Shown: piece after piece, positions 7,039-54,169 of the stretch
Numbering within the stretch: the first letter of the stretch is position 1
Layout of the letters: the number at the start of each line of letters is the position of its first letter
DNA from: Vibrio sp. Of7-15
Lineage (GTDB): Bacteria > Pseudomonadota > Gammaproteobacteria > Enterobacterales > Vibrionaceae
Direction: 5' to 3'
NCBI RefSeq assembly: GCF_022347565.1
Contig: NZ_JAKRGH010000025.1
Location: 1-64,000, forward strand
DNA: 64,000 bases
Position numbers and translations under genes: made by a program
The notes under the pieces: generated by a model
Databases searched by the model: none
What the model was told of the DNA's origin: nothing
Seen by the model: the letters and a program-made list of their open reading frames with translations, nothing else

Positions 7039-7056
7039 GCTTCTGCCCTTTGTTGT

Positions 7057-9885: not shown

Positions 9886-9903
9886 TTACAAGTCACGTGC
9901 CAA
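9886..9903 (-). promoter_or_regulatory. Sigma-54 (-24/-12) promoter candidate for the tRNA-like RNA and SPFH-rtcB-rtcA transcript
   Basis: Minus strand reads TTGGCACGTGACTTGTAA, i.e. TGGCACG-N4-TTGT against consensus TGGCACG-N4-TTGCW. The GG and the spacing are preserved; the -12 element is GT instead of GC. It lies divergent from RtcR, a sigma54 activator, and about 90 nt upstream of the tRNA-like element. Confidence 0.5.
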
Positions 9904-10051
9904 CATAGATAAAAACCCTCAAATTAATTTATAAGCCTTTGTTAATGATGAGAAATAAATAGATCTAGATGGATTTTCTATAAAATAAGATTGAAAATGA
10001 AATAGCAGAAAGTTACCTTTAAAGATAGGAGTATATCTATTTGGATAGGGC

Positions 10052-23110: not shown

Positions 23111-23131
23111 TTTTCAAGTTCTAACGACGAA

Positions 23132-25375: not shown

Positions 25376-25450
25376 AAGGGATCTCTTTAAACAAACAAAG
25401 TAGAAAATAGCCCCAGAAAGGAGCTATTTTTAGGGAGCTAAACAGTTAGA

Positions 25451-27142
25451 TTAAAAGCCAAATGGGCTCTTTTCTGCTTGCTTTTGTGGTTGTTCCGCTT
25501 GTTTTTCATCATCAAACTTTCCAGCCGTAACGTCAGCGGCAACCGAGATAGAGTCTTGTACGCTCTCTTGTACGTCTTTTGCTGTGCTCTCTAAACGGCT
25601 TAATAGATCTTTCGTTTCAAGCAGACCATCGCGGGTAATGCCTGTCGCTGTTTCAATCACTTGGCCATATTGCTCTAAATCTTCAAGTGCTTTGCTCAGC
25701 TCATTGTTTTGCTCTTGTGTACCAAGGGCAACACGGATCACTTCTTTTTGGCCTAAGTTAGAAGTGGTTTGCTGCATACGCTCAAGGGACATACGCGCCA
25801 TTTCTGACGATTCGCCCAATGCCGCAGAAGACACTGCTTGCAGTACCGTGCTCAGCTGATCCGCAACGCCAGCGACGCCCGAGCTGTGCAGTTGGCGTGT
25901 TTTAGAAATTTGCTGATCATTGGCATCCTGCATCGACTTGATTCGGTGGCCTGAGCCCGTTAGCTCCGCCAGTACTGACGTCGTATCAATCGCCGAGTTA
26001 CCTAACGATTTAATGTGGTTTTCCAGATCACGCTTGTGACGCTCACGAGTCATACGCTCGATGTCACCTTCTGACTCTCCGCCTGGTTGCAGCGTGTCAC
26101 GTAATGCTTCGTTTTGAGCATCGGCTTCTTTAGTCGCATCGTTAATGATGGCGTACATTTCACGCATGCTGAAGTTTGCCTCATTAAGGTTCTCGATCTG
26201 ACCATTCATCATGTCAAAATGCTCAGAAACCGTACCCACTCGAACTTCCGTTGTTTCAATAAAGTCTTGCGCCGCCGTGACTAAAGCTTTTTGTCTGTCT
26301 TTGTGCTCGTTAGAAGAGATATCAAGCAGCTCGCGTAGTTTAGCTTTTTGAGCCGCATACTCGCTCAGGCTGGACTCTTTTGTTGGGTGTTGCGGAGTAT
26401 CTGCGATAGTTTGAGTTAACTGGGCTAACTCTTGGGTGTGTTTGTCCATTTCCATTTGTAAAAGCGCAATCTGTTCGCGCGATTTACGGGTTACATTACC
26501 AAAACCAAACCATGACTTATCTTCACCCAGTTTAGTAATGTACTTTTTCTTCTCATCCATCAGTGATGTTAGAGAAGATAGTTGCTCTTCTTGCTCGGCG
26601 CGCAGTGCAGCCAACTCAGCTTCGGCCTCTTTATCTTCAGCGATTTCTCGGAATACATCAAACGTCACGCCATTCATACGTAGGGTATATACCGCGTCAA
26701 CGATGTCGGTTAGTGGAGAGATCTTATCTTCAAATGACATCAACGCAGTATTGATGTCATCGTAAACGGTTTTTAGCTCAGAGAATGCACCAGTATCCGT
26801 TAGGGAAATGATTTCTTGTGCCATGCGCTTACGTTCATGCTGTAAGAATTCTTTGAATTGGTTGAATTCTTCCAGTTTCTCTTTAGCTTCGTCTTTGTTA
26901 TTACTGAACGTCAATGCTTTTGAAACGGCATTCTTCTTGTCCGTTGGCGTTAAGCTTGGATCTAAAATAATCCCATAAAATGTGTTCGCCTGAATATTGG
27001 CAAACTTTTGACTGCTCTCTTGCTGCGCTCTGGTCTCTGATTTTGAATTACTAGAGCGACGCTTCGACGTATTGACTGCCTGCTCTAACACGTTATTCAT
27101 TTCATTGGACTGTTTTCTTTTTTTACTCGAATTAGATGACAT
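25451..27142 (-). CDS. Hypothetical coiled-coil protein (possibly TelA-like), first gene of the cluster
   Basis: A 563-aa protein dominated by heptad-like acidic/Gln-rich segments with no TM and no nucleotide-binding motifs. The TelA/KlaA-like assignment is only an impression. Confidence 0.4.
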   Translation of the reverse strand: MSSNSSKKRKQSNEMNNVLEQAVNTSKRRSSNSKSETRAQQESSQKFANIQANTFYGIILDPSLTPTDKKNAVSKALTFSNNKDEAKEKLEEFNQFKEFLQHERKRMAQEIISLTDTGAFSELKTVYDDINTALMSFEDKISPLTDIVDAVYTLRMNGVTFDVFREIAEDKEAEAELAALRAEQEEQLSSLTSLMDEKKKYITKLGEDKSWFGFGNVTRKSREQIALLQMEMDKHTQELAQLTQTIADTPQHPTKESSLSEYAAQKAKLRELLDISSNEHKDRQKALVTAAQDFIETTEVRVGTVSEHFDMMNGQIENLNEANFSMREMYAIINDATKEADAQNEALRDTLQPGGESEGDIERMTRERHKRDLENHIKSLGNSAIDTTSVLAELTGSGHRIKSMQDANDQQISKTRQLHSSGVAGVADQLSTVLQAVSSAALGESSEMARMSLERMQQTTSNLGQKEVIRVALGTQEQNNELSKALEDLEQYGQVIETATGITRDGLLETKDLLSRLESTAKDVQESVQDSISVAADVTAGKFDDEKQAEQPQKQAEKSPFGF

Positions 27143-30248: not shown

Positions 30249-31379
30249 TTACTTCTTTTTGATTCTTCGCATTGAGGCAAAGATAAATAAAGAAAGGAAT
30301 GATAATAAACCTGTCGACCCTCCTTCTGTTGAGAATAAGCTTTGGTTGGTTGAACTGTTATCACCAACAGTAACCACATCAGAGCCTATTTCATTTTTAA
30401 CAACAAAAGGATCGATATTAAACGTGTATTGATTAGCTCCAGTAAGTTGATTCACTGTAATGCCTGTTTTACTGGAAATCCAATTTAGATAATTCGATAC
30501 CTGAGTGTAAACTCCTGGATGTTCGCCTACACCGCACCCATTACTCGTGCCAAAGCTTACTACCCCCACCAAGCGCATTCCTTTATCGATATCAGCTGTA
30601 TTACTTGGGTCACGCCACACTAAAGGACCACCACTGTCTCCCTGACAACTGCTTGTGTTTGAATGTTGCACAGGTTTTGCCGCACATATCATTAAATCGT
30701 CAGGTAAACTAATTCCCCAAGTAGTTTCACACGCGTTATCTGGTACTCCAATCAGTAAAGCTTGCCTTAAACGACTGGACGTATCGTCTTCAGTTGCAGA
30801 TGAAAGAGGCACTGTATTACCCCAGCCGGAAACCAATAAGGTAGCTTCATTATCTTGATTGTAATTGTAATTATGACCACTCCATTGATTGGCAAAAGCC
30901 TTATCCATACTTTGCTGGCCTTCACTATCAAGTAGAGTAATAGGCGTTCCAGATTTAAGGTCGCCATTGATCTTAATAAGCGCAATGTCATTTACAACCG
31001 TAACTGGAGAGTAACTTTCGTGAATAATTAACTCACTCACCGCATGAGATACACCTTTGCCTTTAAGAGTACTGCCAGAGTAAATGGTAACGGTTCTTGA
31101 GGTATCAACGTAACTCTGGTTTTTATTGGCTAGGCAATGTGCGGCAGTCAGTACCCAGTTTGCATTGAGAATAATTCCACCACACAAGTAAGTCACGTTC
31201 ACACTTTCTCCATTGACTTGGAGCGTTTTTTTGCCTTCTACTTGCACTTGCCATGGAATAGCGTTTGTTTGGCTTATATTACCATCGACAACGTATGGCG
31301 ATATTCCATCTTGAGCAAACGCATTGAGTGAAACCACACACGCTAAAGGAAGAGAAAGAGGTAAGTATTTCGTTTTCAT
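30249..31379 (-). CDS. Secreted trypsin-like (S1) serine protease with a GlyGly-CTERM sorting signal (VesB-like)
   Basis: Catalytic triad motifs TAAHC, DIALIKI and GDSGGPL. The C-terminus GGSTGLLSFLSLFIFASMRRIKKK is GG, then a TM, then a basic tail. The likely start is Met at 31379, giving signal peptide MKTKYLPLSLPLACVVSLNAFA. Confidence 0.85.
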   Translation of the reverse strand: MKTKYLPLSLPLACVVSLNAFAQDGISPYVVDGNISQTNAIPWQVQVEGKKTLQVNGESVNVTYLCGGIILNANWVLTAAHCLANKNQSYVDTSRTVTIYSGSTLKGKGVSHAVSELIIHESYSPVTVVNDIALIKINGDLKSGTPITLLDSEGQQSMDKAFANQWSGHNYNYNQDNEATLLVSGWGNTVPLSSATEDDTSSRLRQALLIGVPDNACETTWGISLPDDLMICAAKPVQHSNTSSCQGDSGGPLVWRDPSNTADIDKGMRLVGVVSFGTSNGCGVGEHPGVYTQVSNYLNWISSKTGITVNQLTGANQYTFNIDPFVVKNEIGSDVVTVGDNSSTNQSLFSTEGGSTGLLSFLSLFIFASMRRIKKK

Positions 31380-31679
31380 CAAAGCTTTTTTCCTGCTTAT
31401 TAATTGCATATTTATAGTTATAATCAAGCAGGGATTATAATTTAACCTTTGATTTTATAAAGCCTTTTATCAGGAATCATTTCAATAAAGTAAGAACGTG
31501 ATTTGCCCCAAGTGCCGCGTATACCCTTCTTTTGGACACGAGGAATTAAGAAAGACTACGAAGAAGGTGAAAGGGAGCTATAACAATATGATAGGTATAA
31601 TATAAATCATTACATTAATGAAAAAGCCGGAGGCATAGAAAAGACTACCTCCGGAATATCTACACTATTGAAAACTTTA

Positions 31680-32801
31680 CTACTTTTTTACTCTTCTAAG
31701 AGAAGCAAGAATAAGCAGAGACAACATGGAGAATACGCCAGTAGAGCCACCTGATGTAGTGACTGTTCTATTGCTAATCGTTGTACCCGTGCCAGTATCC
31801 ACCTCAGTAGCTACTTCATTTTTAACCGCAAAAGGATCCGCGTAAAATACATGTTTATTGGCATCAGTAAGTTCAGAATTCAGCCCCGTGTTAGATCTAA
31901 TCCAGTCAAGGTAACTTGATACCTGAGTATAAACTCCAGGAGTGCTAGATCCACATCCATTACCATAACTCACTACCCCAGCTAAGCGCATACCTTTATC
32001 ACTATCAGAGACATGAGACGGATCACGCCACACTAAAGGCCCGCCACTATCACCTTGACAGCTGTCGGTTTTTGAATTTTTCTGGGGCTTCATCGCACAC
32101 ATAGAGAGAGTAGTATCAGGATCATACTGAAGGCCTCTGTATATAGCTCTCAGCTCCGCCCAGCTAGTATCACAGACAGTATCAGTCACTCCCACCAGCA
32201 AGGCTTGTCTTAAATTATTACTGGATATAGCTTGATCTTTAGTATCCCCCCAACCAGAAACCAGCAAAGTTGCTGCGTTATCTTGATTGTATTCATAATC
32301 AAAGCCACTCCACTGGTTACGAAAAGCGTCATCCATGCTTTGCTGCCCTTGGCTATCAAGCAGAGTGATAGGAGTACCAGATTTTAGGACACCATCTATC
32401 TTGATAAGAGCAATATCATTCAAGCCTGTTTTATTGGACGTTGAGTAACCAGAATGGATAATAGTTTCACTTACAGCATGGGCATCCCCTCCGTCTTTTA
32501 CATTACTGCCTGAATAGATGGTGATGTTATTATCAGTAATACGCTGTTCATCACTGTCGTAGAGGCAATGTGCCGCTGTAAGAACCCAATTATTATTAAG
32601 GATGGTACCACCACAAGTGTAAGTGTAGATATAAAAGCCTTGAATAGATTGACTTTTAATTTGCACTTGCCATGGAATAGAGCCCGTTTGGCTTGTATTA
32701 CCATCTACAATATAAGGCGAGATTCCATCTTGAGCAAAAGCATTGAAAGAAAACGCACACGCCAAAGAGAGGGGTAGAGTTAAAGCTCTAAATTCCATCA
32801 A
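31680..32801 (-). CDS. Secreted trypsin-like (S1) serine protease with a GlyGly-CTERM sorting signal, paralog of the preceding gene
   Basis: TAAHC, DIALIKI and GDSGGPL are present. The C-terminus reads GGSTGVFSMLSLLILASLRRVKK. The N-terminal region IPWQVQ is shared with the neighbouring protease. Confidence 0.85.
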   Translation of the reverse strand: MMEFRALTLPLSLACAFSFNAFAQDGISPYIVDGNTSQTGSIPWQVQIKSQSIQGFYIYTYTCGGTILNNNWVLTAAHCLYDSDEQRITDNNITIYSGSNVKDGGDAHAVSETIIHSGYSTSNKTGLNDIALIKIDGVLKSGTPITLLDSQGQQSMDDAFRNQWSGFDYEYNQDNAATLLVSGWGDTKDQAISSNNLRQALLVGVTDTVCDTSWAELRAIYRGLQYDPDTTLSMCAMKPQKNSKTDSCQGDSGGPLVWRDPSHVSDSDKGMRLAGVVSYGNGCGSSTPGVYTQVSSYLDWIRSNTGLNSELTDANKHVFYADPFAVKNEVATEVDTGTGTTISNRTVTTSGGSTGVFSMLSLLILASLRRVKK

Positions 32802-33002
32802 ATATAATTCCTGCTTATTAGTTAAGTATTTATAGAGATAAGTGATGAAGCATTTTAATCATTAAAAATATTTAATAAAGCAGTTATTGATAAAAGGCCG
32901 TAATATTAACCATCTTTTATAAAGACGCCAACCGATTGTTATAACTGTGTGTAATTTAAAGATTTTAAGTTAACAAACGAAAATTAAAGTCCGTAAAAAG
33001 CT

Positions 33003-34274
33003 CTAATGGATGGGCAAAGTAGCTACAAAAACCGCACCGCTTCGTTCATTAGATTCAATCACTATGGTTCCCAAATGGCCATGAATCACTTGCGCAACAA
33101 TTGCAAGACCCAGCCCATGACCACCACTTTGACGATCCCGTGCCGTACCAATTCGATAAAAAGGCTTGAATACGCTTTCTCGCTCAAACTCCGGAATTCC
33201 CGGACCGTCATCTTCAACTTGAAGCACAAATTGCCCATTATTTACATAAACTTTGACCTTTACTTCACTATTTGCATAACGAATAGCGTTACCAATCAAG
33301 TTCGACATCGCACGCTGAAGTTGAACATGATCCACATTCACCTCTTCATCAGTACACTCCAATAAAATGGGCACAGGGCTCACCACTTGGTGCTTTTTCA
33401 CCAAGAGATTAAGCCAATTTGATGGCGCTTCTAACGTACGACAGGGTTTCATATCAAGTCCTTCTAAACGCGCATAATAAAGCAGCTCCTCCACCAGTTC
33501 TTCCAATTCATCAATATCAGCGGCTAGTCCATCCAAATGGCGTTGAACATCTTCATTCACTTCCAACTCATCTAAAAGTGCGAGCTGACACTCCATCCTA
33601 AATAATGGTGTCCGTAGTTCATGAGCAACCGCATTACTAAGTTGCTTTTGACTAGTAATGAGCTGGCTCACCCGCTGTGCCATTCCGTTAAATTGCTCGT
33701 TAAGCGCCCCTAGCCGGATCCCTGCCTTTTCAGGAGCCCGGGCTGAAAAAACACCATTAGCGAACTCATAAGTCGCATTTTCCAAAGGTTTTAAACGACG
33801 ATGAAGAAGAAAAACAACCACTAAGCTATAAAAAAAGAAAACTCCACCAAACCAATAAAACGCAAATGAGTCTTCATAATCCAGCTCGCCCCAAATGGAA
33901 TACTGACGATCCGGAAATAAGTAATAAAGCCTTTCCCCGATGTACAACAAATATTCATTATCATCAATGCTTATGGCTCGCTTTTCCTTGAGCTCTGCAT
34001 GTTTGTGGCTACTCAGACCATTCACATCTTTCCAGTCAATCACTCTTACATCAAAAAAACTGTCTCTTACAAATTTTTCGATGGCGCTGGCCGCTTTTTC
34101 ATGACCGATAACGGTGACATCATCCACCACCCGGGCGAAAGAAGAAACATGTGTCGCCGCAAGTTGAGTATCGTAATCAGGCCTGATCTCTTGAAAATAA
34201 TACGACATTGACACCAGCCCCAAGAAGAAGCAGAGAAACGATCCAGCAAAAATCTCTAAAAAAATACGTCTCAT
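33003..34274 (-). CDS. Two-component sensor histidine kinase
   Basis: Two TMs, a HAMP domain, the H-box VAHELRTPL, and HATPase_c motifs N (NLIGNAIRY) and G (GLGLAIV). Confidence 0.85.
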   Translation of the reverse strand: MRRIFLEIFAGSFLCFFLGLVSMSYYFQEIRPDYDTQLAATHVSSFARVVDDVTVIGHEKAASAIEKFVRDSFFDVRVIDWKDVNGLSSHKHAELKEKRAISIDDNEYLLYIGERLYYLFPDRQYSIWGELDYEDSFAFYWFGGVFFFYSLVVVFLLHRRLKPLENATYEFANGVFSARAPEKAGIRLGALNEQFNGMAQRVSQLITSQKQLSNAVAHELRTPLFRMECQLALLDELEVNEDVQRHLDGLAADIDELEELVEELLYYARLEGLDMKPCRTLEAPSNWLNLLVKKHQVVSPVPILLECTDEEVNVDHVQLQRAMSNLIGNAIRYANSEVKVKVYVNNGQFVLQVEDDGPGIPEFERESVFKPFYRIGTARDRQSGGHGLGLAIVAQVIHGHLGTIVIESNERSGAVFVATLPIH

Positions 34275-34283
34275 AACTCCTCA

Positions 34284-35000
34284 CTACCATTGCTTTGAGA
34301 CAAACACATACCCTTTGCCACGCACGGTGATGAGCTTAAATGCGTTGCTTGGATCATCCCCGAGTTTCTTTCTTAAAATAGCAATTTTGTTATCGACTGT
34401 TCTGTCTAGCCCATCGTATTCAATACCTCGAGTTTCTGACACCAAAAACGATCTCGATAAAATTTGATCTGGGTTACATGCAAAGATCCACAATAAATCG
34501 AACTCTGCGTCGGTCAATTTCACGTTCACTTCAGCAAGGGTACACATTCGCTGGATTTGATTTAGGTACAGCCCACCAAAACGCCGATCGCTATTCACCA
34601 CTTTTTCAGTTTGGGTACTGGGGGCAACTTCTTCCGCGCGTACCTGACGACGTAATAAATTCCGAATACGGGCCATCAATACCCGAGGTTTCACAGGTTT
34701 AGATACAAAATCATCAGCCCCCACTTCAAGCGCTGATACATGATCAAAATCATCATCACTGGCCGTTAACATTAAAATTTGCCCTGAATACTGATGCCGA
34801 ACTTGACCACAAATCTGCAAACCATCCAGACCAGGAAGCATCAAGTCTAAGATAACGAGCTCTGGCCCCTGCTCTAAAATCACAGCAACGGCTTTTGCGC
34901 CATCGTAAACAGGAGTTACATCAAATCCACTACCAGAAAGGTACTCCGTCAACAGTGCACTGAGCTTCTCGTCATCTTCTACCAAAACTATATGGGGCAT
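34284..35000 (-). CDS. OmpR-family response regulator
   Basis: Receiver domain (HIVLVEDD...DLMLPGLDG...LTASDD) plus a winged-helix C-terminus. Met at 35000 (MPHIV…) is the likely start, not 35060. Confidence 0.85.
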   Translation of the reverse strand: MPHIVLVEDDEKLSALLTEYLSGSGFDVTPVYDGAKAVAVILEQGPELVILDLMLPGLDGLQICGQVRHQYSGQILMLTASDDDFDHVSALEVGADDFVSKPVKPRVLMARIRNLLRRQVRAEEVAPSTQTEKVVNSDRRFGGLYLNQIQRMCTLAEVNVKLTDAEFDLLWIFACNPDQILSRSFLVSETRGIEYDGLDRTVDNKIAILRKKLGDDPSNAFKLITVRGKGYVFVSKQW

Positions 35001-35362
35001 TTTCGTCATCAGCCTTAAAATCACTAATACAGCCAGAGGGGGAGGTAATCTAAGCGGCAAACTCGCTCTTTACTCTTTGTTAGCCTCACCAATACAAGCG
35101 TAGCCAAGCCTAGATCTCTTATCAGCGTAAAATACAAAACCACCATTAATCTGTATATAAAAAAACAGAGTTCAAATGTATGGATTTGTATGTGAGCAAC
35201 ATGCAATCTCCGACAATAGAACACTGTATTAATGAAAAATACTCACTTACTTTATAACTAAACAACCTGTTAATTGTCTGGCAACTTAGCACAAAGGACG
35301 AAGCATCTCGTATTTCAACAATTGCAGCGTTACATTTTATTTTCCAATCTAAGGCAATTGCT

Positions 35363-37275: not shown

Positions 37276-38190
37276 TTACTGCTTATTTGTGTTGCTGTAA
37301 TCGAATTGCGCATAACCAAACGCAGGGCTCAACAATTTATACAAACTCTTCAGTTCAAAAGTCGTTGCCATGTTGATATCTTCTGAGCTGTATTTGGATT
37401 CCAATTCAAATGACACCGTAATAGGAGTATTGAAAAAGACATCCGTAATTGAGTAATGATCGTTGCCAGTGCCGTAATACGGACTAAACGGTAACGATTC
37501 ATATCGGCCATTAAGCTGGATGAGGTCACTCTCTAACTTGGATACTGTTTTCTTATAGCAACCTTCATCGACACACTTTTTGAATGTGTATTTAACCTGA
37601 TTTACCGATTGATCTTCTAGAGAAGGATCCGTTTGAAAAACAATTTTAGGCGTTAGCGATTTTTTGTTAATTGTCTCTTTAGAAACCTTGAATATAAGCT
37701 CATAAGAGACATCGGATAGACCGCTTTTGAATTCCTGATCAACAATTATATCCATTTCATCCACACCAAAATGGCATGAAATATTATCTTTGTTGCAAGT
37801 CGCAATCGTTTCTTCATATGGCAGGTGATAAATGGCATCCATGGTGATCGCATTTTTCACAAGAAGAGCATGCTCTTTTGTGGATGAATTTTTGATCGGT
37901 TTTCCGCTCCTATCCACCACGATGATACGGCCCGTTTTACAATCAATAAGAGTGAATGTGCCATCACCATTAAAACCAACAGATCGAACTCTTTTACTTG
38001 GATCTTCATCAATCTGATAAGAGTTATATACCGTACATAACTGACTTGAAACAGACAGTTCTTGGTGATTAATGCTTGTCGGTATTTGTACTTTTCCTTG
38101 CCAATGAGCGCTCGTTTTTTCGGCACTTTCACTTTTATCACATCCTTGTAGTAATCCTATTACAGTTAATAGTATTGCTACGTTTTTCAT
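37276..38190 (-). CDS. Hypothetical lipoprotein
   Basis: Lipobox LLQGC after a signal peptide (MKNVAILLTVIGLLQGCDKS). Length is 304 aa. Confidence 0.6.
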   Translation of the reverse strand: MKNVAILLTVIGLLQGCDKSESAEKTSAHWQGKVQIPTSINHQELSVSSQLCTVYNSYQIDEDPSKRVRSVGFNGDGTFTLIDCKTGRIIVVDRSGKPIKNSSTKEHALLVKNAITMDAIYHLPYEETIATCNKDNISCHFGVDEMDIIVDQEFKSGLSDVSYELIFKVSKETINKKSLTPKIVFQTDPSLEDQSVNQVKYTFKKCVDEGCYKKTVSKLESDLIQLNGRYESLPFSPYYGTGNDHYSITDVFFNTPITVSFELESKYSSEDINMATTFELKSLYKLLSPAFGYAQFDYSNTNKQ

Positions 38191-38454
38191 CTTCCACTCT
38201 ATATTGAACAGTGTATTTAATTAAAGTGGAATTATATCGCCTTTTGCAAACGAATCACCATCTGTATTTGTGGTTTAAAAAGGAATTTTCTCAACGGCTA
38301 TCGCACAAAAAACGTCCCCTTTATCATATCAACTGAAGTATTAATATTTTTTATAAATTATGGGAGACACATCTGCTTATCTCAATGAAAGACATGGAAG
38401 CATTAATGAGCGTTATGGTTATTAGTCTGGAGTCTGTATGGTGGACTTAAATAA

Positions 38455-39456
38455 ATGTTGAAAATCGATAATTTGGCTTCGGAAATGGACTTCAAAGATC
38501 GTTATTTTACAGTATTAGACTCTCTACCAGATCATATTTTTGTTTTTTCTGAATCGGGCAGCTACGTTGATGTCTACGGCGGAGAAGAGAATGAAACGGG
38601 CTTTGATTGCAAATCCTTCATTGGTCGCTCGCTTTATGAAGTATCTCCCCCTGACATGGCAAAAAAGTTTCATGCTTATATTAGAGCAGCGCTAGAAAGC
38701 AATAAAATCCAAGTGATCAAATACAAATTTGATAAGCAAGAGATGATTGATTTGCCTGATCACGTCTCGACCCCTATGGAAATTTGGTTCGAAGGCATTA
38801 TTAAACCACTTACCCTTATAGAAAATAACGAAAGAACCGTTGTGTGGATGGCAAAGAACATCACGGAGCGTCATTACTTAGAGCAGCGCTTAAAAACACT
38901 TTCTGAGATAGATGAATTAACAGGGATTTACAATAGACGCTCATTCACCAGCTCTCTTTCAAAATCGTTAGAACGCTTCCACTCAGAGCAACGTTCTTTT
39001 TCCTTACTGATGATTGATATAGATAGATTTAAACGAATCAATGATTCTATCGGGCATTCATCTGGTGATGATGTGATTAACCATGTTGTCTCGATATTTC
39101 AGTCAGAATTAGCCCCAACACACTGTATTGGCCGGCTAGGGGGCGAAGAATTTTCGGTAATACTCGATGGCACCACACCATTAAACGCCCTATGTGTCGC
39201 CGAAAAAATCAGAGCAAAAATTGAAAAATCCCCCTGCAAAACAGGAGAGTATACAGTGCAAGCAACCGTCAGTATCGGCGTTACTGGTGTACTTAAAAAC
39301 GATGACGACATCAAAAATCTGTTATCCCGGGCGGATAAGGCCATGTACCATTCAAAAACTAGCGGAAGAAACCGAGTCAGCTTATATACAGAAGATATAG
39401 AGCGGAACAATAGACGCTCAACGGACGGAATACAAATATTAAACGACACAACTTAA
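38455..39456 (+). CDS. Diguanylate cyclase (GGDEF) with an N-terminal PAS-like sensor
   Basis: Active-site GGEEF within IGRLGGEEFSVIL, preceded by the RRSF I-site-like motif. Length is 333 aa. Confidence 0.85.
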   Translation: MLKIDNLASEMDFKDRYFTVLDSLPDHIFVFSESGSYVDVYGGEENETGFDCKSFIGRSLYEVSPPDMAKKFHAYIRAALESNKIQVIKYKFDKQEMIDLPDHVSTPMEIWFEGIIKPLTLIENNERTVVWMAKNITERHYLEQRLKTLSEIDELTGIYNRRSFTSSLSKSLERFHSEQRSFSLLMIDIDRFKRINDSIGHSSGDDVINHVVSIFQSELAPTHCIGRLGGEEFSVILDGTTPLNALCVAEKIRAKIEKSPCKTGEYTVQATVSIGVTGVLKNDDDIKNLLSRADKAMYHSKTSGRNRVSLYTEDIERNNRRSTDGIQILNDTT

Positions 39457-39506
39457 TCACGCTCACCTGTTCACTCAATCAGCATTTGTAATCAACGGAA
39501 AATTAA

Positions 39507-40676
39507 ATGGATTTAAGACACTGTTCGGGATTCACCTTACCACTCCAAAAAGGGCCATTTCAGAATAATGGAGCAACGCCTTGGTATTGCGAACTAGGGA
39601 TTGGCTCTCCTGCGCAAAAACTCAAAATGTGCTTTGACACTGGCAGTAACTTCAACTGGGTAACATCCAATCTCTGCTCAGATGATGGCTGCAAGCATTA
39701 TGCAAATGCTCGCTTTAATTTAAATTTGTCTTCAACGTTTGAATGGATAAACCAAGACGTACAATCGGTCAATTTTGGGCCATGGGGCACAATGCAAGTA
39801 GAAACAGGAAGAGATCGTTTATGCCTCCCCTACCATCACGGCCCCTCAATTGTTAGTGATCTCTTTTTAGCCTCTGAATATTCTGGCACTCAGTTTGAAG
39901 AACTCGACTGGGATGGTGGGATCGGCCTGCCAAGCTCTCAAGACATAACAGCGATTGCTCCAAGTGCTTCTTATCCTTTTAGGGGGCACCACACGAATAC
40001 CAATTCAAATGAAGACTTTAATTTTTTCTTAACACTACTAAAAATGGGGCTGGTAGGCACTTCTACCCCTTATATTTCAGTACAAACAGAGCCACTGTGC
40101 GATCACCCAACAGGCTATATTGGGTTTGGCACATTGGATAGGTCTTACGCCTCTTCTCTTGAATATTTGTTTCTGCCTTGGTCGTGTTACCAACAAGAGG
40201 CCAGTTATTTATGGACAACAGCCAACACAACCGTAAAAGTCAATGGCAACACCATTGGCACCAACATGTTTTTTGCCCTAGATACTGGTTCATCGCAATT
40301 TAAAGGGGACAACTCAGTGTTAACCCAAGTGTATAACTTAACAAAAAACGATGGTCCCCCTGTCTCTATTATGCTCTCAGATGAAAATGGCATTGAATAT
40401 GGTGAATTAAACATCACTAGAGATATATACCAATGCAAAATAGAGGCAGGAGAGAAAAAAGGCAAAGTAGTTTCACAATTCCAAGGACTACCTGGGGCAG
40501 ACGACATGCTACTGGTTGGCTCTGTGTTAATGGATCACCTTTACACTGTGTACGAATATGAAGTGATCTCCAACAATGATATTCGCCCTAAAGGCGTCTG
40601 GATTTTCAATAAGCCGAATGGCCCCAAAATTATAAAAAACAGACAAACTTCCACTGCCTCATTATTCTCTCGTTAA
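39507..40676 (+). CDS. Pepsin-like (family A1) aspartic protease homologue, no signal peptide
   Basis: Two catalytic DTGS motifs arranged as in bilobal pepsins: YCELGIGSPAQKLKMCFDTGSNFNWV in the first lobe (compare pepsin Y.G.I.IGTPPQ.F.V.FDTGSS..WV) and FFALDTGSSQF in the second. Length is 389 aa, with a hydrophilic N-terminus. Confidence 0.8.
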   Translation: MDLRHCSGFTLPLQKGPFQNNGATPWYCELGIGSPAQKLKMCFDTGSNFNWVTSNLCSDDGCKHYANARFNLNLSSTFEWINQDVQSVNFGPWGTMQVETGRDRLCLPYHHGPSIVSDLFLASEYSGTQFEELDWDGGIGLPSSQDITAIAPSASYPFRGHHTNTNSNEDFNFFLTLLKMGLVGTSTPYISVQTEPLCDHPTGYIGFGTLDRSYASSLEYLFLPWSCYQQEASYLWTTANTTVKVNGNTIGTNMFFALDTGSSQFKGDNSVLTQVYNLTKNDGPPVSIMLSDENGIEYGELNITRDIYQCKIEAGEKKGKVVSQFQGLPGADDMLLVGSVLMDHLYTVYEYEVISNNDIRPKGVWIFNKPNGPKIIKNRQTSTASLFSR

Positions 40677-40691
40677 AGGATACATCGATTC

Positions 40692-41465
40692 ATGAACACG
40701 TGTTTATCTGGAATCTGGACCAACTCTTTCGGCTCCAAAATGTCTCTCATCGTCGATGGTACTCAAATCATTGGTACCTATTCTTCTCATACTGGATCGA
40801 CTGGGGAATACCGCCTAATCGGTCATTGCTCGAAACTGAGTCCATCTGAGCAGTTAGGCCAAAGCATCGCTATCTCTATTTACTGGAAGAATATTCACGA
40901 TGGGGTTAAAGATGAAAGCTGGCATTGGTCTGGCACGATGTGTGGCCAACTACAACTAGATGGCACCATGACCTTAACCAACGCCATTGTGGTGTCAGTC
41001 GCATTTGAGCATTATCAGAAAGGAAATTACATTGATGAACTGGTATTTAGTAAAAATGGTCAACTCAGCCAACCCGAGATGGATGCGATCCACCAGCACT
41101 TCACGCTAAAAGAACCAACTTTGCCGTCTTATCCATTAGTCGGAAAATGGCAAAATAACACTCTCACGCTCGATATTAATCAGCCCCATCCCATCTCCGG
41201 CTACACACAAGCACACTTAATTACACCAGGTATCGAGCTCACCCTTTCTGGCTTTATCGATGTAGATGCACACAAAAATATGGCACAAAGTTTATCACTG
41301 TCAGGCTATAACCCCATTACAGAAGAAACCATATCCATGTCAGGTATGCTTGATTACAGCAGCCATCATTTAACCTTATATTCTTGGTCAGCACAACCAA
41401 CGTCACCTGAAGACAGCTTCATGCAAACACAAATGAGGGCCCTTCAGTTTGAAAAGAGCGGATAA
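40692..41465 (+). CDS. Tandem avidin/streptavidin-like domain protein, no signal peptide
   Basis: Residues 5-125 align with the streptavidin core: GIWTNSFGSKMSL..GTYSSHTGSTGEYRLIG...ISIYWKN...WHWSGT against GTWYNQLGSTFIV..GTYESAVGNAESRYVLTG...WTVAWKN...TTWSGQ. Several biotin-contact positions (Asn, Ser, Tyr, Ser, Trp, Trp) are retained. A second, weaker repeat (LVGKWQNNTLTL...ISGYTQ...LTLYSWSA) follows. It is 16 bp downstream of the A1 protease gene. Confidence 0.7.
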   Translation: MNTCLSGIWTNSFGSKMSLIVDGTQIIGTYSSHTGSTGEYRLIGHCSKLSPSEQLGQSIAISIYWKNIHDGVKDESWHWSGTMCGQLQLDGTMTLTNAIVVSVAFEHYQKGNYIDELVFSKNGQLSQPEMDAIHQHFTLKEPTLPSYPLVGKWQNNTLTLDINQPHPISGYTQAHLITPGIELTLSGFIDVDAHKNMAQSLSLSGYNPITEETISMSGMLDYSSHHLTLYSWSAQPTSPEDSFMQTQMRALQFEKSG

Positions 41466-41866
41466 AGAGGCTTTTCTTTAAGTAAGTTAGTTAATGGCAA
41501 AAACAGTGGTTCAGGTAGGTGGTTCACATCGCACCATTGCCACTGTTTACATTTATCGATTTCTTTTACTTCAGGCTCACCTGAATGGCACTCAGCAGCA
41601 ACAAACAGAGTAATATAATGCTTGCCTTCTTCTTTGAAAATGTCATTCGTAAAACTAAGCTTGGTTACGGATTCAATGGCTAACCCCGTTTCTTCAAAAA
41701 CCTCACGTTGAGCGCATTTCTCTATGCTCTCACCAACTTCCAAATGCCCACCCGGAGTAGCCCACGTGTTTGCACCATGAGAGCCAATTCGCTCTCCCAA
41801 TAAGATTCGATTATTCCTGATAATAATACACCTACCCCAACTCGAACTTCTTTCGTCATCGTTTAC
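41444..41866 (-). CDS. NUDIX hydrolase, N-terminus apparently frameshifted
   Basis: Nudix box GGHLEVGESIEKCAQREVFEETGL. The ORF as listed starts at Met 41800 inside the fold. A canonical N-terminus (MTKEVRVGVGVLL…) exists from ATG 41866 in another frame, and the two frames meet at a TTATTATTAT run. Confidence 0.6.
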   Translation of the reverse strand, partial: VNDDERSSSWGRCIIIRNNRILLGERIGSHGANTWATPGGHLEVGESIEKCAQREVFEETGLAIESVTKLSFTNDIFKEEGKHYITLFVAAECHSGEPEVKEIDKCKQWQWCDVNHLPEPLFLPLTNLLKEKPLYPLFSN

Positions 41867-41888
41867 ATTCCTTTTTATCCCTGATCGA

Positions 41889-42224
41889 CTACCAAACCAG
41901 CACTTTAAAAATACACAAAATGAGACTCACCGATATCAGCCCTATCCAGCCTAATATTTGGGTCACTTTTTCAGGTGAGGCCGGATTAAAATGAGGGAAC
42001 AATATCGCCCCGAAAGAAACTAAAGGAACATATTCATAAAGCTGGCCTGTCCTCACCGAGGTTCCATTTAATTGAGAAGGTAAAAATAAATAGACAACGA
42101 TATACAGCGCCATAAATACCATGGCACAATAGATTTGCCGTTCGACAAACTCACCGCGATTGACGTAAAAAAAGCACAGAGCTAAGCCCAGTGCCACTCC
42201 TATCAAAACCATAAAGGCCCACAC
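41889..42224 (-). CDS. Hypothetical small membrane protein
   Basis: Three hydrophobic helices on a 111-aa protein. Confidence 0.4.
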   Translation of the reverse strand: MWAFMVLIGVALGLALCFFYVNRGEFVERQIYCAMVFMALYIVVYLFLPSQLNGTSVRTGQLYEYVPLVSFGAILFPHFNPASPEKVTQILGWIGLISVSLILCIFKVLVW

Positions 42225-50171: not shown

Positions 50172-50648
50172 TTAAGCTTTCTTCTGCGTCGCTTCAACGA
50201 TGACACAACCCGCAGTCCCGATGAAATACGCTACTAAATCCATCCAATCAAATGTGGCCCCGAAGATCACTCGTAACGCAGGATGAGCTCCCCAGCCAAG
50301 CCAATTCAATACTTGGAAGTACTGACTAATTTCCACCATAAACGCGATCCCATACACTAATCCAGCCAACATCAAAGGCTGGCAGCGCCAGAAGCTACCG
50401 AGCAGACTATAAAGCCACACGACAACCAGCACATCTCCTACAAAAGGCCGAATAAAATCATCCCGCACAAACAAAGCAATAAAAACCAATATTCCCAGTA
50501 ATATAAGGCTGATCCCACTACGCTTATAACAAATACGAAAAACACCTTGTGACTTTGTCATCTCAGCACTTTGATTATGAGTACATCCGCTACGACTGCT
50601 CATCATCGCTCTCCTTATTTGCTTTTTGAGCCACTGCACGGCGCTCAT
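50172..50648 (-). CDS. Hypothetical small inner-membrane protein downstream of creD
   Basis: Four hydrophobic helices. It overlaps the creD 3' end by 59 nt, so the true start is probably an internal Met. Confidence 0.45.
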   Translation of the reverse strand: MSAVQWLKKQIRRAMMSSRSGCTHNQSAEMTKSQGVFRICYKRSGISLILLGILVFIALFVRDDFIRPFVGDVLVVVWLYSLLGSFWRCQPLMLAGLVYGIAFMVEISQYFQVLNWLGWGAHPALRVIFGATFDWMDLVAYFIGTAGCVIVEATQKKA

Positions 50649-51939
50649 ACCAATTCACATTTCGGGTTAATACCATCACTAGGCTAAGTACAGCAAAACA
50701 AAGCAACGTCCCCATCAATAACGCGTAACTTTCTGCCTGTAGCAAACCAAACAACAGGCCGTATAGCATCAGTAAACTCGCGCCAAAAAGAGAACCATGT
50801 TTATTATTGCTAAGCATCCCCGCCACATACACACTTAATAACCCAGTGGAGGACAAGGCAGACACAAGATAAGCCCAGTTAAACCCAATGTGCTCACTTA
50901 ATGAAATCAGCAGCAAATAAAACAGCGCTAGAGCCAAACCTACAAAGCCATATTGAACCGGATGAATTGGTCGTGCTTGAAACAACTCCAATAAAAAGAA
51001 GCTGGCAAAAATCAACGTCACCACCAGTAATGAATAATTCACCGCTCGATGTGATTTCAAGTAATGATCCACCGGATCAATCAGGCTAACGCCCATCTGA
51101 CGCCCATCCAGTTCATGGCACTGCGAGGTATCCGACATGCAAAGAGAAAAAAGCTGGCTGATATTACTAGAAAAATTATTTGTCGCCCAACTTGCTTTAA
51201 AACCAGATTCAGAAATATCAGACGCGATTGGAAGGTAATCACCAATAAAACTTGGATGTGGCCAAGCAGAAGACAATTCAACCCGAGTGGATTTCCCCAT
51301 TGGTGTCACCTGTAACTGCCCCATCCCTTGTAACATAAAATTAAAGTCAAACTGCAACGGCTTGGTAAGATCCAGCAAATGAAAAGGCAGTGTTTTGTGG
51401 AACCCTTGTGCTAGCTGCTTCAACCCCGTACCAGGTTCTACCGAGATCGACTGCTTGTTTAACTTCAACTCACCAATGTCAATTAACCCACGGCTATCAC
51501 TCACCGACACCACTAAATTCACATCCACAATTGAATCAGGATCAAAATCTTCCAGATCTGACAAATCAAAATGACCTGTTAACTGAGTATTTGCCTGATA
51601 TAAACGCGCGGTATAAATACTACGGTACTTCTCAAAGCTATTCAGTTCCGAAGTCAGGTTAAATCGTTCAGGTAAAATGAAGGCCTGGCGCGTTACCTTA
51701 TAGTCACGTTCATCTCCAGAGATTGTCTCTTTATATAAGACACTGATAAAAGGCCCCATAATGCGCTGTTCACCGCTACTGCTGCGAGCAATATCATTAC
51801 GTACCTCTTCCATACGATACGATCGCTCGGAAATCAGGCTTTCAATCATATTTACGGGGATCTGCAACAGCAGAAAAAGAAATAATACGAAGCCGAACTT
51901 AGTGCCCAGCTCATTGCTTAACCATTTTTTCATGACCAC
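50590..51939 (-). CDS. creD: Cell-envelope integrity inner-membrane protein CreD
   Basis: 449 aa. It has an N-terminal TM, a large periplasmic domain and a C-terminal TM cluster, in operon position after creC. Confidence 0.75.
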   Translation of the reverse strand: MVMKKWLSNELGTKFGFVLFLFLLLQIPVNMIESLISERSYRMEEVRNDIARSSSGEQRIMGPFISVLYKETISGDERDYKVTRQAFILPERFNLTSELNSFEKYRSIYTARLYQANTQLTGHFDLSDLEDFDPDSIVDVNLVVSVSDSRGLIDIGELKLNKQSISVEPGTGLKQLAQGFHKTLPFHLLDLTKPLQFDFNFMLQGMGQLQVTPMGKSTRVELSSAWPHPSFIGDYLPIASDISESGFKASWATNNFSSNISQLFSLCMSDTSQCHELDGRQMGVSLIDPVDHYLKSHRAVNYSLLVVTLIFASFFLLELFQARPIHPVQYGFVGLALALFYLLLISLSEHIGFNWAYLVSALSSTGLLSVYVAGMLSNNKHGSLFGASLLMLYGLLFGLLQAESYALLMGTLLCFAVLSLVMVLTRNVNWYERRAVAQKANKESDDEQS

Positions 51940-52004
51940 TCTCCTCAGTTTTCTTTTACTTTAAAAAAACAATTTGGAGAGTGGATGGAGGGAATGTGGA
52001 GTTT

Positions 52005-53447
52005 TTATGGAGTTGGCAAACAAAGCGTCACTTTGACACCCTCATCGACATTTTCCACACACAACTTTCCTTGGTGTAACTTCATCACCTGCTCAATAAA
52101 GTTAAGTCCAAGCCCAGTACTTTTTACGCCATTCTCTCTTGGCAAAGAATAAAACCGCTCGGTTAACCGGCTCAAGGCATAATCGGGAATATGTGGGCCC
52201 TGATTAAAAACCGATATTTCTACCTTATCTAACTTTTTCTGGATCCGCCAATGAATGACACCACCCTCGAAGACAAAATCGACAGCGTTATCCATTAAGT
52301 TAAACAGTGCCTGTTGCAAAAGAAAACGATCACCGTGAACCATAATATTCGCATCGGTAATGAGATCACTATTTACTGCCTTTTGACTTAATCGTGCCGC
52401 CGAAGATTCTAAGATCTCCTCCAGCATCATTTTCGGAGAAAGTGATTCAACCTGATCTAGCTGGGGCATTTTTTCTAATCGTGCTAACTCAAGTAGTTTA
52501 TCTATCAAGAGCTGCATTCGTTCACTTTCACGTTCGATATTACTGGCAAAACGTTGGGTTTTCTCTTCAGGCAGCGGCATTTGCAGAATTTCACTGGCCC
52601 CTTTAATAGCAGAAATTGGACTTTTTAACTCATGGGTCAGTGTTTGCACGTACTCTTCGACATATTGCTTGCCATCGAGCTGATTCCGCATTTTTTCCAA
52701 AGCGTTGCTTAACGTGGTGTACTCATAAAAAATACGAAAAGTGGGCTTAGCAACTTTTTCTCCTCGCCCCATCTTATCAGCGTAATTTTCCAATTTATGC
52801 AGAGCCGAATGAATACGCCACGCAATTAACGCCCCGACCATCAAAGCTAAAACGGTCATCAGTATCATCCAGAACAACACTTTACGCTTTGAAAGGTCAA
52901 TAAATGGCTGAACCGAACGGTTGGCTTTTGCAACAGTTACACTGCCTATGATTTCCCCTTCGTGATAAATCGGCGCGGCTACGTGCATCACAGTGGAAAG
53001 CGGATCTTGTGGATCTGACGCCGTACTGCGAGCGCCGTAACGCCCGCGTAATGTCAGGTATACGTCGTTCCATTGGGAATAGTCTTTACCGACATCTTGT
53101 TGCCAAGAATCTGCAACAACGATCCCCTGCTTGTCCGTAATATAAATACGGTGATTAATGACTTTTTTGCCTAGCTCCCAAATTCGCGCATTTGGTTCTC
53201 GAATACCATATGCCGTAAGCAGATCAGAAAACCGGCTGTCGCTCATATTCCCTTTTGCCATTTCTTCTTCAGCTAGGACTGCCAGTAAGTTCGCCATGTC
53301 AACTAAAGTTTCTTCGGTTGCTTGGCGAACTGTTGGTTTCATCTCTTGAATGACGGTTTTGCTCACAAAGTAAGCGGTCATTCCCACTAAAATGAAATAC
53401 AGGAAAAACAATCGGATCCCAAGTGGGATTCTGGGCCAACGATTCAT
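52005..53447 (-). CDS. creC: Sensor histidine kinase CreC
   Basis: 480 aa with two TMs, H-box LTHELKSPISAI and HATPase motifs (NLMDNAVDF, GLGLNFIEQV). Its start overlaps creB by 4 nt. Confidence 0.8.
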   Translation of the reverse strand: MNRWPRIPLGIRLFFLYFILVGMTAYFVSKTVIQEMKPTVRQATEETLVDMANLLAVLAEEEMAKGNMSDSRFSDLLTAYGIREPNARIWELGKKVINHRIYITDKQGIVVADSWQQDVGKDYSQWNDVYLTLRGRYGARSTASDPQDPLSTVMHVAAPIYHEGEIIGSVTVAKANRSVQPFIDLSKRKVLFWMILMTVLALMVGALIAWRIHSALHKLENYADKMGRGEKVAKPTFRIFYEYTTLSNALEKMRNQLDGKQYVEEYVQTLTHELKSPISAIKGASEILQMPLPEEKTQRFASNIERESERMQLLIDKLLELARLEKMPQLDQVESLSPKMMLEEILESSAARLSQKAVNSDLITDANIMVHGDRFLLQQALFNLMDNAVDFVFEGGVIHWRIQKKLDKVEISVFNQGPHIPDYALSRLTERFYSLPRENGVKSTGLGLNFIEQVMKLHQGKLCVENVDEGVKVTLCLPTP

Positions 53448-54169
53448 TCTTGATCCTGACGACTATAATAATAACCAAAACCACGCTTGGTTCGGATCCG
53501 ATCTGCCATACCAATACCCTTGAGCTTATTGCGAATGGCCTTAATGTGAGAGTCGATATTTCTTTCATACACCGCTTCTGGAGCCATGTCTGCTGCTATC
53601 ATTAATTGCTCACGGCTGAGAACATTCGCCGACACCTGGATCAATTTATGTAATATTTTGAACTCCACCGCTGTTAACCCCAGCATTTGGCCTGCAAAGC
53701 CATAATCGAAGTTTTCTACGTACAAACTCTCAGCGCTATTTTCGACTGTGGTTGCCATTGGAGTGACGGCTGGAGAACCAACGAGCTCATGCTCAGAAAT
53801 GGCTCGGGATTTAATACGCAGCTTTATACGAGCCAACATCTCTCTTGGGCTAAAAGGCTTTGTAACATAGTCATCGGCTCCTATTTCTAACCCCACAACT
53901 CGATCTATTTCGTCATTTCTAGCAGTGAGAAAAATGATGGGAATGGCGGAAAACTCACGAATGGTTTTACACAATTCAAAGCCATTACCATCTGGCAAAC
54001 CCACATCCAACACCAATAACGCAGGGTTGTGCTCTTTAAGGTAAGCTAACCCTGCTCCAGCGGTAGTAAACCAGCTAACTTGGTAACCATCCACCTCTAA
54101 AACGTGGATCAGATTCTCTGCAATGGCGGGTTCATCTTCAATGATCAATATATTCAAAATGTTACTCAT
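53444..54169 (-). CDS. creB: Response regulator CreB (OmpR family)
   Basis: Receiver domain (ILIIEDEP…DVGLPDGNG…LTARNDE) and a winged-helix C-terminus. Length is 241 aa. Confidence 0.8.
   Translation of the reverse strand: MSNILNILIIEDEPAIAENLIHVLEVDGYQVSWFTTAGAGLAYLKEHNPALLVLDVGLPDGNGFELCKTIREFSAIPIIFLTARNDEIDRVVGLEIGADDYVTKPFSPREMLARIKLRIKSRAISEHELVGSPAVTPMATTVENSAESLYVENFDYGFAGQMLGLTAVEFKILHKLIQVSANVLSREQLMIAADMAPEAVYERNIDSHIKAIRNKLKGIGMADRIRTKRGFGYYYSRQDQE

Follow-up and report, generated by a model that had tools for sequence, protein, structure and literature searches.

Bacterial pepsins are an evolutionary oddity, with a native role reported for the shewasin group only. Here we describe one of them, ORF1, an open reading frame (ORF) at positions 39507-40676 of a 64-kb stretch of Vibrio sp. 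Of7-15 DNA (the window, meaning this stretch at its full length), together with the gene that follows it, ORF2. In 2009, Rawlings and Bateman described seven bacterial pepsin homologues, which fell into two groups (PMC2761423). The Shewanella/Colwellia group is recognized by Tyr75, Ala218, and Leu303 and by the lack of the Cys45/Cys50 pair, and the Marinomonas/Sinorhizobium group by Phe75, by the presence of the first cysteine pair, by Ser or Arg as residue 303, and by psi-loop inserts. The homologues of S. denitrificans and Marinomonas share 15.5% identity, and the authors questioned the activity of the Marinomonas/Sinorhizobium group (PMC2761423). Shewasins A and D are pepstatin-sensitive and shewasin D is cytoplasmic; the authors of that study deduced that the latency of cytoplasmic pepsins must rest on unknown regulatory mechanisms (PMC4814920). 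Shewasin A (SamP) has been reported as the leader peptidase of a borosin, an alpha-N-methylated peptide that is made on the ribosome and modified after translation (RiPP), and requires the N-methylated leader (bioRxiv 10.1101/2024.01.09.574750). Finally, Laitinen et al. reported in 2021 that pepsin-avidin fusions occur in a few species; the avidins concerned belong to an “Extended clade” and carry a C-terminal extension of ~150 residues in which no domain was recognized (PMC8033661).

ORF1 is already annotated (NCBI entry “A1 family peptidase [Vibrio sp. Of7-15]”, 100% identical), ORF2 has an NCBI entry from the same strain (“avidin/streptavidin family protein”), and the fusions have been published (PMC8033661). 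Four observations were not found in the literature searched: that the unfused genes are almost always adjacent, that the avidin extension is a second barrel, that the pair is associated with a GGDEF gene in a three-gene cassette, and that it has a hydantoinase context in other lineages. A preliminary description of ORF1 had the family and the cellular location right; it relied on the wrong relative, the shewasins, and overlooked both ORF2 and the PAS-GGDEF gene upstream. The genes in question are as follows.

38455-39456, + strand: PAS-GGDEF diguanylate cyclase (PF00990, 142.8 bits, plus PAS_4; GGEEF motif intact; no transmembrane segment)
39507-40676, + strand: ORF1, homologue of the A1-family (pepsin-fold) aspartic peptidases (389 amino acids, ATG start, uninterrupted reading frame)
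40677-40691, + strand: spacer of 15 nucleotides (nt) between ORF1 and ORF2, with an AAGGA ribosome-binding site overlapping the ORF1 stop codon
40692-41465, + strand: ORF2, tandem avidin-like protein of 257 amino acids (PF01382, 29.7 bits against a cutoff of 24; predicted cytoplasmic)

The pepsin homologue is paired with an avidin-like protein

A collection holding one genome per species was scanned with the pepsin motifs only. The scan gave 90 matching stretches, and the best 80 of these were kept, corresponding to 77 distinct loci from Vibrionaceae, Psychromonas, Motilimonas, Marinomonas, Celerinatantimonas, Agarivorans, Pseudomonas, Sphingomonadales, Acidobacteriota, and Bacteroidota; no Shewanella locus was retrieved. 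An ORF2 homologue lies downstream of the pepsin gene or is fused to it in 71 of the 74 informative loci, which span Gammaproteobacteria, Alphaproteobacteria, Acidobacteriota, and Bacteroidota. The pair is split in 49 loci, where the avidin-like gene follows directly (spacing of -4 to +55 nt), and fused in 22, which comprise the 19 Pseudomonas loci without exception and three from Vibrio. These calls were made by strict frame matching, and spurious long ORFs occur in high-GC (guanine plus cytosine) genomes. The remaining six of the 77 loci comprise three that are cut by contig ends, one (Tenacibaculum) in which the avidin-like gene is directly upstream, and two, L004 and L007, that have no avidin-like gene and alone depart clearly from the pairing.

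The fused state is also visible in the proteins, since there are pepsin homologues of 630-680 amino acids, many with PF00026 and PF01382 in one chain. Distant relatives show the same association in other arrangements: a pepsin of 30% identity has an avidin-like gene directly upstream, P0166 is a pepsin fused to a full-scoring avidin domain, and among secreted Bacteroidota-type forms with a type IX secretion system (T9SS) sorting tail, one has an N-terminal avidin domain. Across phyla, compartments, and gene orders, the constant element is an aspartic protease together with an avidin-like barrel.

In the clade of the window (ten loci in five genera), the PAS-GGDEF gene, ORF1, and ORF2 are the only shared content, and the flanks are alike only between two Enterovibrio contigs; the three genes thus form a portable cassette. 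The PAS-GGDEF gene lies 50 nt from ORF1 on the same strand. As its homologues align from their own residue 1 to residue 11 of the listed ORF, its true start is probably Met11 at 38485. In L001-L007, L027, and L039, an ortholog of this gene immediately precedes the pepsin gene in the same orientation; L065 has two copies, and in Agarivorans two copies lie on the opposite strand. Adjacency or fusion in 71 of 74 loci and the recurrence of the cassette in unrelated contexts cannot be coincidence. A scan for promoters and terminators over positions 38100-41900 remained at chance level and was uninformative on an operon.

Additional avidin-like copies were seen in sphingomonads, where L057, L060, and L072 (~9040-9825) have not only the downstream copy but also another one that immediately precedes the pepsin gene. 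An upstream copy is also present at L071 (8975-9910), and the only copy of Tenacibaculum is upstream as well.

ORF2 resembles a single-chain avidin dimer

ORF2 residues 5-256 align with the C-terminal 260 amino acids of the fusions P0023 and P0100, from V. tapetis and Pseudomonas cedrina (E values of 1e-34 and 3e-35). The fusions of Laitinen et al. (~640-680 amino acids, with pepsin N-terminal and avidin C-terminal) are colinear with ORF1 plus ORF2, and ORF2 corresponds to their “extended avidin”. In contrast to these fusions, ORF1 and ORF2 are split and 15 nt apart, and neither the adjacency of unfused genes nor the GGDEF and hydantoinase contexts are described in that work (PMC8033661). Two barrels can be delimited in ORF2.

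40704-41060, + strand: N-terminal barrel (about residues 5-123), in which the ureido pocket of streptavidin is partly retained
41136-41465, + strand: C-terminal barrel, about residues 149-257, degenerate avidin-like and without the pocket residues

The first 86 residues of the ORF2 family profile match tamavidin-2 (E value of 1.6e-7) and streptavidin (3.8e-7), and hhalign aligns the N-terminal half with core streptavidin at 94.6% probability. The C-terminal barrel alone gave no significant hhalign match to streptavidin. The two halves align with each other over ~105 columns (92-93% probability, E value of ~1e-7, 8e-8). In the AlphaFold2 model (predicted local distance difference test score (pLDDT) of 92.6, predicted template modeling score (pTM) of 0.90), a helix joins two eight-stranded barrels, and the best whole-chain match of Foldseek in the PDB is the engineered single-chain dimeric streptavidin (scdSav; 6S50/6S4Q), with template modeling (TM) scores of 0.75-0.79 over 268 columns. 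The alignment of the halves, the model, and the match to scdSav together identify the extension as a second, degenerate avidin barrel, which makes ORF2 a natural single-chain avidin pseudo-dimer. It resembles scdSav and dual-chain avidin in having two avidin barrels in one chain. Unlike scdSav, it is natural, only 15-16% identical, predicted to be cytoplasmic, and genetically tied to a protease, and it has the pocket residues in one barrel only. The literature searched for natural tandem avidins gave engineered examples only, and a natural single-chain dimeric avidin with one putative binding site could interest protein engineers.

Six pocket residues are invariant in the family: Asn11, Ser15, Tyr30, Ser32, Trp65, and Trp79, equivalent to N23, S27, Y43, S45, W79, and W92 of streptavidin. 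This conservation points to one modified, putative ureido-type pocket per ORF2 chain, in the N-terminal barrel.

At its 3′ end, ORF2 meets a convergent gene for a NUDIX hydrolase (41444-41800, - strand) that overlaps it by 22 nt. The NUDIX gene matches the PADLOC candidate family PDC-S07 (E value of 6.6e-11) and is not conserved beside the cassette in other genomes.

ORF1 is an intact bilobal A1 homologue

The preliminary description had proposed an intact, bilobal pepsin homologue with both DTGS motifs at 39507-40676, which is confirmed. The reading frame is exact, residues 43-47 read FDTGS and residues 258-263 read LDTGSS, and a TAA stop codon abuts the ATG, so that the N-terminus cannot extend further. 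The Pfam match to PF00026, well beyond what chance would give, scores 61 bits (E value of 1.7e-16), where the gathering threshold is 19.9, and covers profile positions 3-306 of 315. As a single query against PDB sequences, ORF1 matched chymosin and pepsin at ~1e-8 in the N-lobe only; a profile of 86 unfused homologues, which was also the alignment behind the structural model, matched chymosin at 7.5e-21 with both lobes of the family aligned. Identity to eukaryotic pepsins is ~20-23%.

The AlphaFold2 model of ORF1 (pLDDT 91.6, pTM 0.92) places the catalytic motifs at the ends of strands 37-44 and 248-258, with a C-lobe arrangement that mirrors the N-lobe, so the second DTGS sits at the psi-loop position. 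The flap is a beta-hairpin (79-89/95-106) with FGPWG at its turn. Foldseek matched the model to chymosin and pepsin in the PDB with E values down to 5e-22, a target-normalized TM score of ~0.75, and ~380 columns. Cathepsin D, plasmepsin X, renin, and BACE1 were also matched (range 1e-19 to 5e-22), and no bacterial A1 structure was among the top 50 PDB matches. ORF1 is an intact bilobal bacterial A1 homologue in which the two catalytic Asp motifs are in register, as are the glycines of the two psi loops, and its key sites are as follows.

39633-39647, + strand: N-lobe catalytic motif FDTGS, residues 43-47, aligned to the FDTGSS of chymosin and pepsin (Asp44 = Asp32, Ser47 = Ser35)
39774-39788, + strand: flap tip FGPWG, with Phe90 at the Tyr75 position and a two-residue Pro-Trp insertion in HMMER alignments to pepsin and chymosin
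39918-39926, + strand: N-lobe psi loop Gly138-Ile139-Gly140 (WDGGIG against FDGILG of chymosin; Ile-Leu-Gly 120-122 of pepsin)
40278-40295, + strand: C-lobe catalytic motif LDTGSS, residues 258-263, against LDTGTS of chymosin (Asp259 = Asp215, Ser262 at the Thr218 position)
40512-40523, + strand: C-lobe psi loop Leu336-Val337-Gly338 followed by Ser339 (LvGsvlm against ILGDVFI of chymosin; Ile-Leu-Gly-Asp303 of pepsin)

Further equivalents are Trp51 (Trp39 of pepsin) and Cys57/Cys62 (Cys45/Cys50). Two residues that the preliminary description had singled out for comparison with pepsin, Tyr75 and Thr218, both differ: the flap is not pepsin-like, as Phe90 within FGPWG replaces the tyrosine, and a serine, Ser262, is found at the threonine position. 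The hydrophobic-hydrophobic-Gly signature of the psi loops is kept in the C-lobe as Leu-Val-Gly. In the N-lobe, Gly-Ile-Gly has Gly at the first position and keeps one hydrophobic residue.

Conservation was counted over 120 listed homologues. Among the 119 homologues that have the region (P0078 is truncated at the N-terminus), a single one lacks the first-site motif D[TS]G, and the Asp and Gly of this motif are invariant among the 86 unfused homologues. The second-site motif D[ST]G is found in 120 of 120, mostly as DSGSS, and so is the flap FG[PSH]WG; the N-lobe psi loop WDGG[ILM]G is found in 119 of 120 and the C-lobe LVGS in 111 of 120. The single deviation at the first site is in P0038, the V. 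tapetis fusion of 672 amino acids, whose DTAS motif (Gly34 to Ala) is unique among the 120; this may be a weakened or inactive copy.

Could ORF1 then be an inactive pepsin-fold scaffold, or else a stand-alone housekeeping or exported protease with coincidental neighbors? The loss of Tyr75, the atypical N-lobe psi motif, and the DTAS of P0038 would fit a pseudo-enzyme, and the activity of the group has been questioned (PMC2761423). However, both Asp motifs and the flap are kept in nearly all 120 homologues across phyla, and this near-universal conservation makes purifying selection on catalysis probable and a dead scaffold unlikely. Coincidental neighbors are contradicted by the pairing counts and by the recurrence of the cassette in otherwise unrelated contexts, and export by the lack of a signal peptide. 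We therefore regard this explanation, in either form, as highly improbable. The sequence conservation instead argues for a family under strong selection for catalysis, with a flap chemistry unlike that of pepsin.

The preliminary description had also noted a hydrophilic N-terminus and proposed an intracellular protein. There is indeed no hydrophobic stretch at the N-terminus, the maximum Kyte-Doolittle mean over 19 residues being 1.13 for the entire protein, and such segments are absent from ORF1, ORF2, and the upstream GGDEF protein alike (maximum mean ≤1.21). In the alignment, ORF1 starts ~12 residues ahead of the position of the mature pepsin N-terminus. With so short a leader and no hydrophobic segment, ORF1 lacks both a signal peptide and a prosegment, and judging from its sequence it is most probably cytoplasmic.

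Three other features of ORF1 stand out. Behind the first psi loop comes an insertion of ~17-30 residues (residues 143-172 or so, window positions 39933-40022); it is lineage-specific and modeled at a low pLDDT of 64-77. A 35-residue C-terminal tail (353-389) and an N-terminal GPFQNNGA(S/T)PWY segment are conserved. The insertion, tail, and segment are candidate contact surfaces for a partner protein.

The gene context differs between marine and other lineages

The neighborhoods of the 77 loci were compared by unbiased clustering of all neighboring ORFs. A same-strand GGDEF gene is present in 28 of 32 marine gammaproteobacterial loci versus none of the 45 others. Besides the PAS-GGDEF gene of the cassette, a second architecture consists of a PAS hybrid histidine kinase and a REC-GGDEF protein encoded directly after the avidin-like gene; it is found in Marinomonas, Celerinatantimonas, Aliagarivorans, a Cellvibrionaceae metagenome-assembled genome (MAG), and four Vibrio species. 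Between the two architectures (the window versus the hybrid kinases of Marinomonas and V. tapetis), the PAS domains could not be linked by phmmer or by a family hidden Markov model, so that the GGDEF output is all that they have in common. The GGDEF gene, ORF1, and ORF2 were also considered as a defense system made of a cyclase and an effector, and this was rejected, as PADLOC gave no significant match for any of the three.

A different setting is found in 29 of the 45 loci outside the marine Gammaproteobacteria (soil, plant, and Bacteroidota lineages). In Pseudomonas, sphingomonads, and Tenacibaculum, a same-strand block combines an uptake gene (for a TonB receptor or an MFS transporter) with genes for a MalT-type regulator, for hydantoinase/oxoprolinase A and B, and for a hydantoin-type racemase. 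The hydantoinase block is also present beside two distant pepsins (30-36% identity), once with an NCS1 permease; the context of another distant match, P0201 (L080), is sparse. The literature searched contained nothing relevant on a link of avidins with hydantoinases or with GGDEF proteins.

In view of these genes, the pair could serve as an amidohydrolase module acting on cyclic ureides or lactams (compounds like hydantoin, oxoproline, or biotin), in which the barrel would hold the cyclic moiety while the aspartic dyad cuts an attached amide. Hydantoinase A/B, an Asp/Glu/hydantoin racemase, NCS1, MFS, and TonB transport genes, and a MalT-type regulator in one same-strand block would all suit such a module, as would the invariance in ORF2 of the residues equivalent to those that hydrogen-bond the ureido ring in streptavidin. 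The window and the 32 marine loci, however, lack nearby hydantoinase genes and have GGDEF signaling genes instead. In addition, A1 enzymes have long clefts that fit peptides of six to eight residues, and we know of no small-molecule amidase in this family. On balance, we find this reading distinctly unlikely.

ORF1 is of the Marinomonas/Sinorhizobium type

Identity between ORF1 and Marinomonas proteins is 43-47%, and none of the hallmarks of the Marinomonas/Sinorhizobium group is missing from ORF1: Phe90 at position 75, the Cys57/Cys62 pair, and Ser339 at position 303, with Ser262 at position 218. These residues assign it to this type of bacterial pepsin. With the homologues of Marinomonas sp. 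MWYL1 and Sinorhizobium medicae it shares Phe75, the Cys45/Cys50 pair as the only one, Ser303, inserts near the first psi loop, and the lack of a signal peptide. It differs from the Marinomonas proteins in its Vibrio host and in its upstream PAS-GGDEF gene, where Marinomonas has the downstream PAS hybrid kinase and REC-GGDEF genes.

The likeness to shewasins put forward in the preliminary description is weak. Shewasins A and D and ORF1 are all bacterial, bilobal A1 proteins with neither a signal peptide nor a prosegment, and a cytoplasmic site is common to shewasin D and, most probably, ORF1. Shewasins nevertheless belong to the other group (Tyr75, Ala218, Leu303) and are linked to borosin gene clusters, whereas ORF1 has Marinomonas-type hallmarks and an avidin-like partner. 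The borosin methyltransferase family PF00590 was not found by Pfam among 43 ORFs of the window, including 38 of the 39 of at least 200 amino acids (one ORF of 209 amino acids was unscanned).

A role as a shewasin-type RiPP maturase, that is, a leader peptidase for a borosin precursor encoded perhaps in a distal cluster, must be considered in this light. Shewasin A is reported to cleave an N-methylated borosin precursor, and 56 aspartic peptidases are found in genomes with a borosin cluster elsewhere; non-borosin bacterial A1 peptidases, on the other hand, have no reported RiPP context (bioRxiv 10.1101/2024.01.09.574750). The common lack of a signal peptide and prosegment would also fit. Against such a role, ORF1 has Phe75/Ser218/Ser303 rather than Tyr75/Ala218/Leu303, and the two groups are ~15% identical (PMC2761423). 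The identified neighbor clusters of the 77 loci concern signaling, Hyu, uptake, and regulator genes, or are restricted to Marinomonas or Pseudomonas, and none is a recurrent methyltransferase-like cluster, a few small clusters being unscanned. Together with the lack of PF00590 in the scanned ORFs of the window, this leaves a borosin function with only a very slight chance of being correct, and we consider it the least probable of the explanations given here.

Compared with the eukaryotic A1A enzymes pepsin, chymosin, and cathepsin D, ORF1 shares the fold, both catalytic motifs, Ser35, Trp39, the cysteines of the first disulfide, and the second psi loop. It differs in lacking a signal peptide and prosegment and in having the FGPWG flap, the insertion after the psi loop, the C-terminal tail, and the conserved N-terminal segment.

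Pepsins of this kind had been called rare in bacteria, which overstates the case. A word-indexed search gave 323 clusters of ORF1 homologues at 90% identity, the scan of one genome per species gave at least 77 loci, and an exhaustive search of 1.84 billion representatives gave 343 matches at E ≤1e-3, 115 at ≤1e-10, and 44 at ≤1e-30. The family is uncommon and patchy, yet it is no rarity.

Among the distant homologues, P0160, P0164, P0172, P0163, and P0156 are secreted multidomain proteins with CUB and MAM domains and a C-terminal T9SS sorting tail, by which they are probably from Bacteroidota. Exported bacterial A1 proteins thus exist.

A ligand-directed protease is proposed as the best explanation of the pair

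We propose that ORF1 would be a functional cytoplasmic A1 aspartic endopeptidase, made without a prosegment, and that ORF1 and ORF2 would form a two-part unit, presumably a physical complex, that has become a single polypeptide in Pseudomonas and some Vibrio. Through the pocket of its N-terminal barrel, ORF2 may present the protease with a ureido or cyclic-amide group, either as a free molecule or on a peptide. ORF2 would thereby supply ligand or substrate recognition, either by targeting the protease to molecules that bear the group or by making proteolysis depend on the ligand. The pair would be co-transcribed with the soluble PAS-GGDEF protein, and the same-strand cassette makes a coupling of its activity to cyclic diguanylate (c-di-GMP) signaling probable. 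Taken as a whole, a ligand-directed cytoplasmic aspartic protease with an avidin-like partner, co-transcribed with a PAS-GGDEF gene, is the best explanation that we can offer, and we judge its chances of being right or wrong to be about equal.

A more specific version can be formulated only tentatively and may well prove wrong in one of its parts. The pair would be a previously unrecognized ligand-dependent cytoplasmic protease in which the tandem avidin senses a biotinyl-, hydantoin-, or oxoprolyl-like molecule and targets or switches the protease; in marine bacteria, the co-inherited PAS-GGDEF or phosphorelay genes would link the output of the pair to the synthesis of c-di-GMP.

The pairing could also be explained by latency. 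ORF2, or the fused domain, would then keep the pepsin inactive until a small ligand in the N-terminal barrel pocket releases it, so that the protease is gated by the ligand rather than targeted. ORF1 has no prosegment and a cytoplasmic site, where unchecked pepsin activity would be harmful, and the stoichiometric pairing or fusion is nearly universal. Eight-stranded calycin-type barrels moreover include protease inhibitors. Regulatory mechanisms that keep cytoplasmic pepsins latent were inferred by the authors of the shewasin D study (PMC4814920). However, the secreted T9SS forms with avidin domains need no protection of a cytoplasm, and L004 and L007 have a pepsin without a partner. A latency factor therefore seems to us unlikely, if a reading to be taken seriously.

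Several observations weigh against a ligand-directed protease. On the side of the protease, Tyr75 of the flap is replaced by Phe in ORF1, and the corresponding Y75F mutation made rhizopuspepsin weaker; proteolysis has never been demonstrated for any Phe75 homologue or member of the Marinomonas/Sinorhizobium group (PMC2761423). The N-lobe psi motif, Gly-Ile-Gly, is not hydrophobic-hydrophobic-Gly. On the side of the partner, the avidin pocket is incomplete, with Asn97 in place of Trp108 (Asn or His in the family) and no clearly kept equivalents of Trp120 and Asp128, which leaves the binding of a biotin-like molecule unproven. The close relatives L004 (10001-11191, a Vibrionaceae MAG) and L007 (9962-11137, V. 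metoecus) have the PAS-GGDEF gene and the pepsin gene and no avidin-like gene, the pepsin of L007 being the 382-amino acid protein of the V. cholerae type, and the protease can thus persist alone. Finally, the neighboring genes vary with the lineage (GGDEF or hydantoinase) and the PAS domains are unrelated, and a single physiological role is not established.

From a biological perspective, genes of the ORF1 type are found with c-di-GMP signaling genes in marine lineages and with genes of cyclic-amide catabolism in soil, plant, and Bacteroidota lineages. The pairing and these contexts provide a testable handle on the role of a cytoplasmic pepsin and on the purpose of non-secreted avidins.

Other genes of the window

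Elsewhere in the window, several gene groups can be recognized.

101-2731, - strand: type II restriction-modification pair, in which a restriction endonuclease of the Eco29kI type goes with a C-5 cytosine DNA methylase, adjoined by a T5orf172/MUG113-domain protein
6001-11653: RNA repair operon with RtcA cyclase, RtcB ligase, and a Band-7/SPFH protein (- strand) and the divergent sigma-54 activator RtcR (+ strand)
22325-27142, - strand: ClpB/ClpV-like AAA+ protein (747 amino acids) between proteins of 261 and 563 amino acids without a Pfam match
30249-35060, - strand: tandem trypsin-family serine protease paralogues (392 and 373 amino acids) beside an OmpR-type response regulator and a histidine kinase
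50590-54169, - strand: gene for the CreD inner-membrane protein with a histidine kinase and an OmpR-type regulator, a CreBCD-like locus

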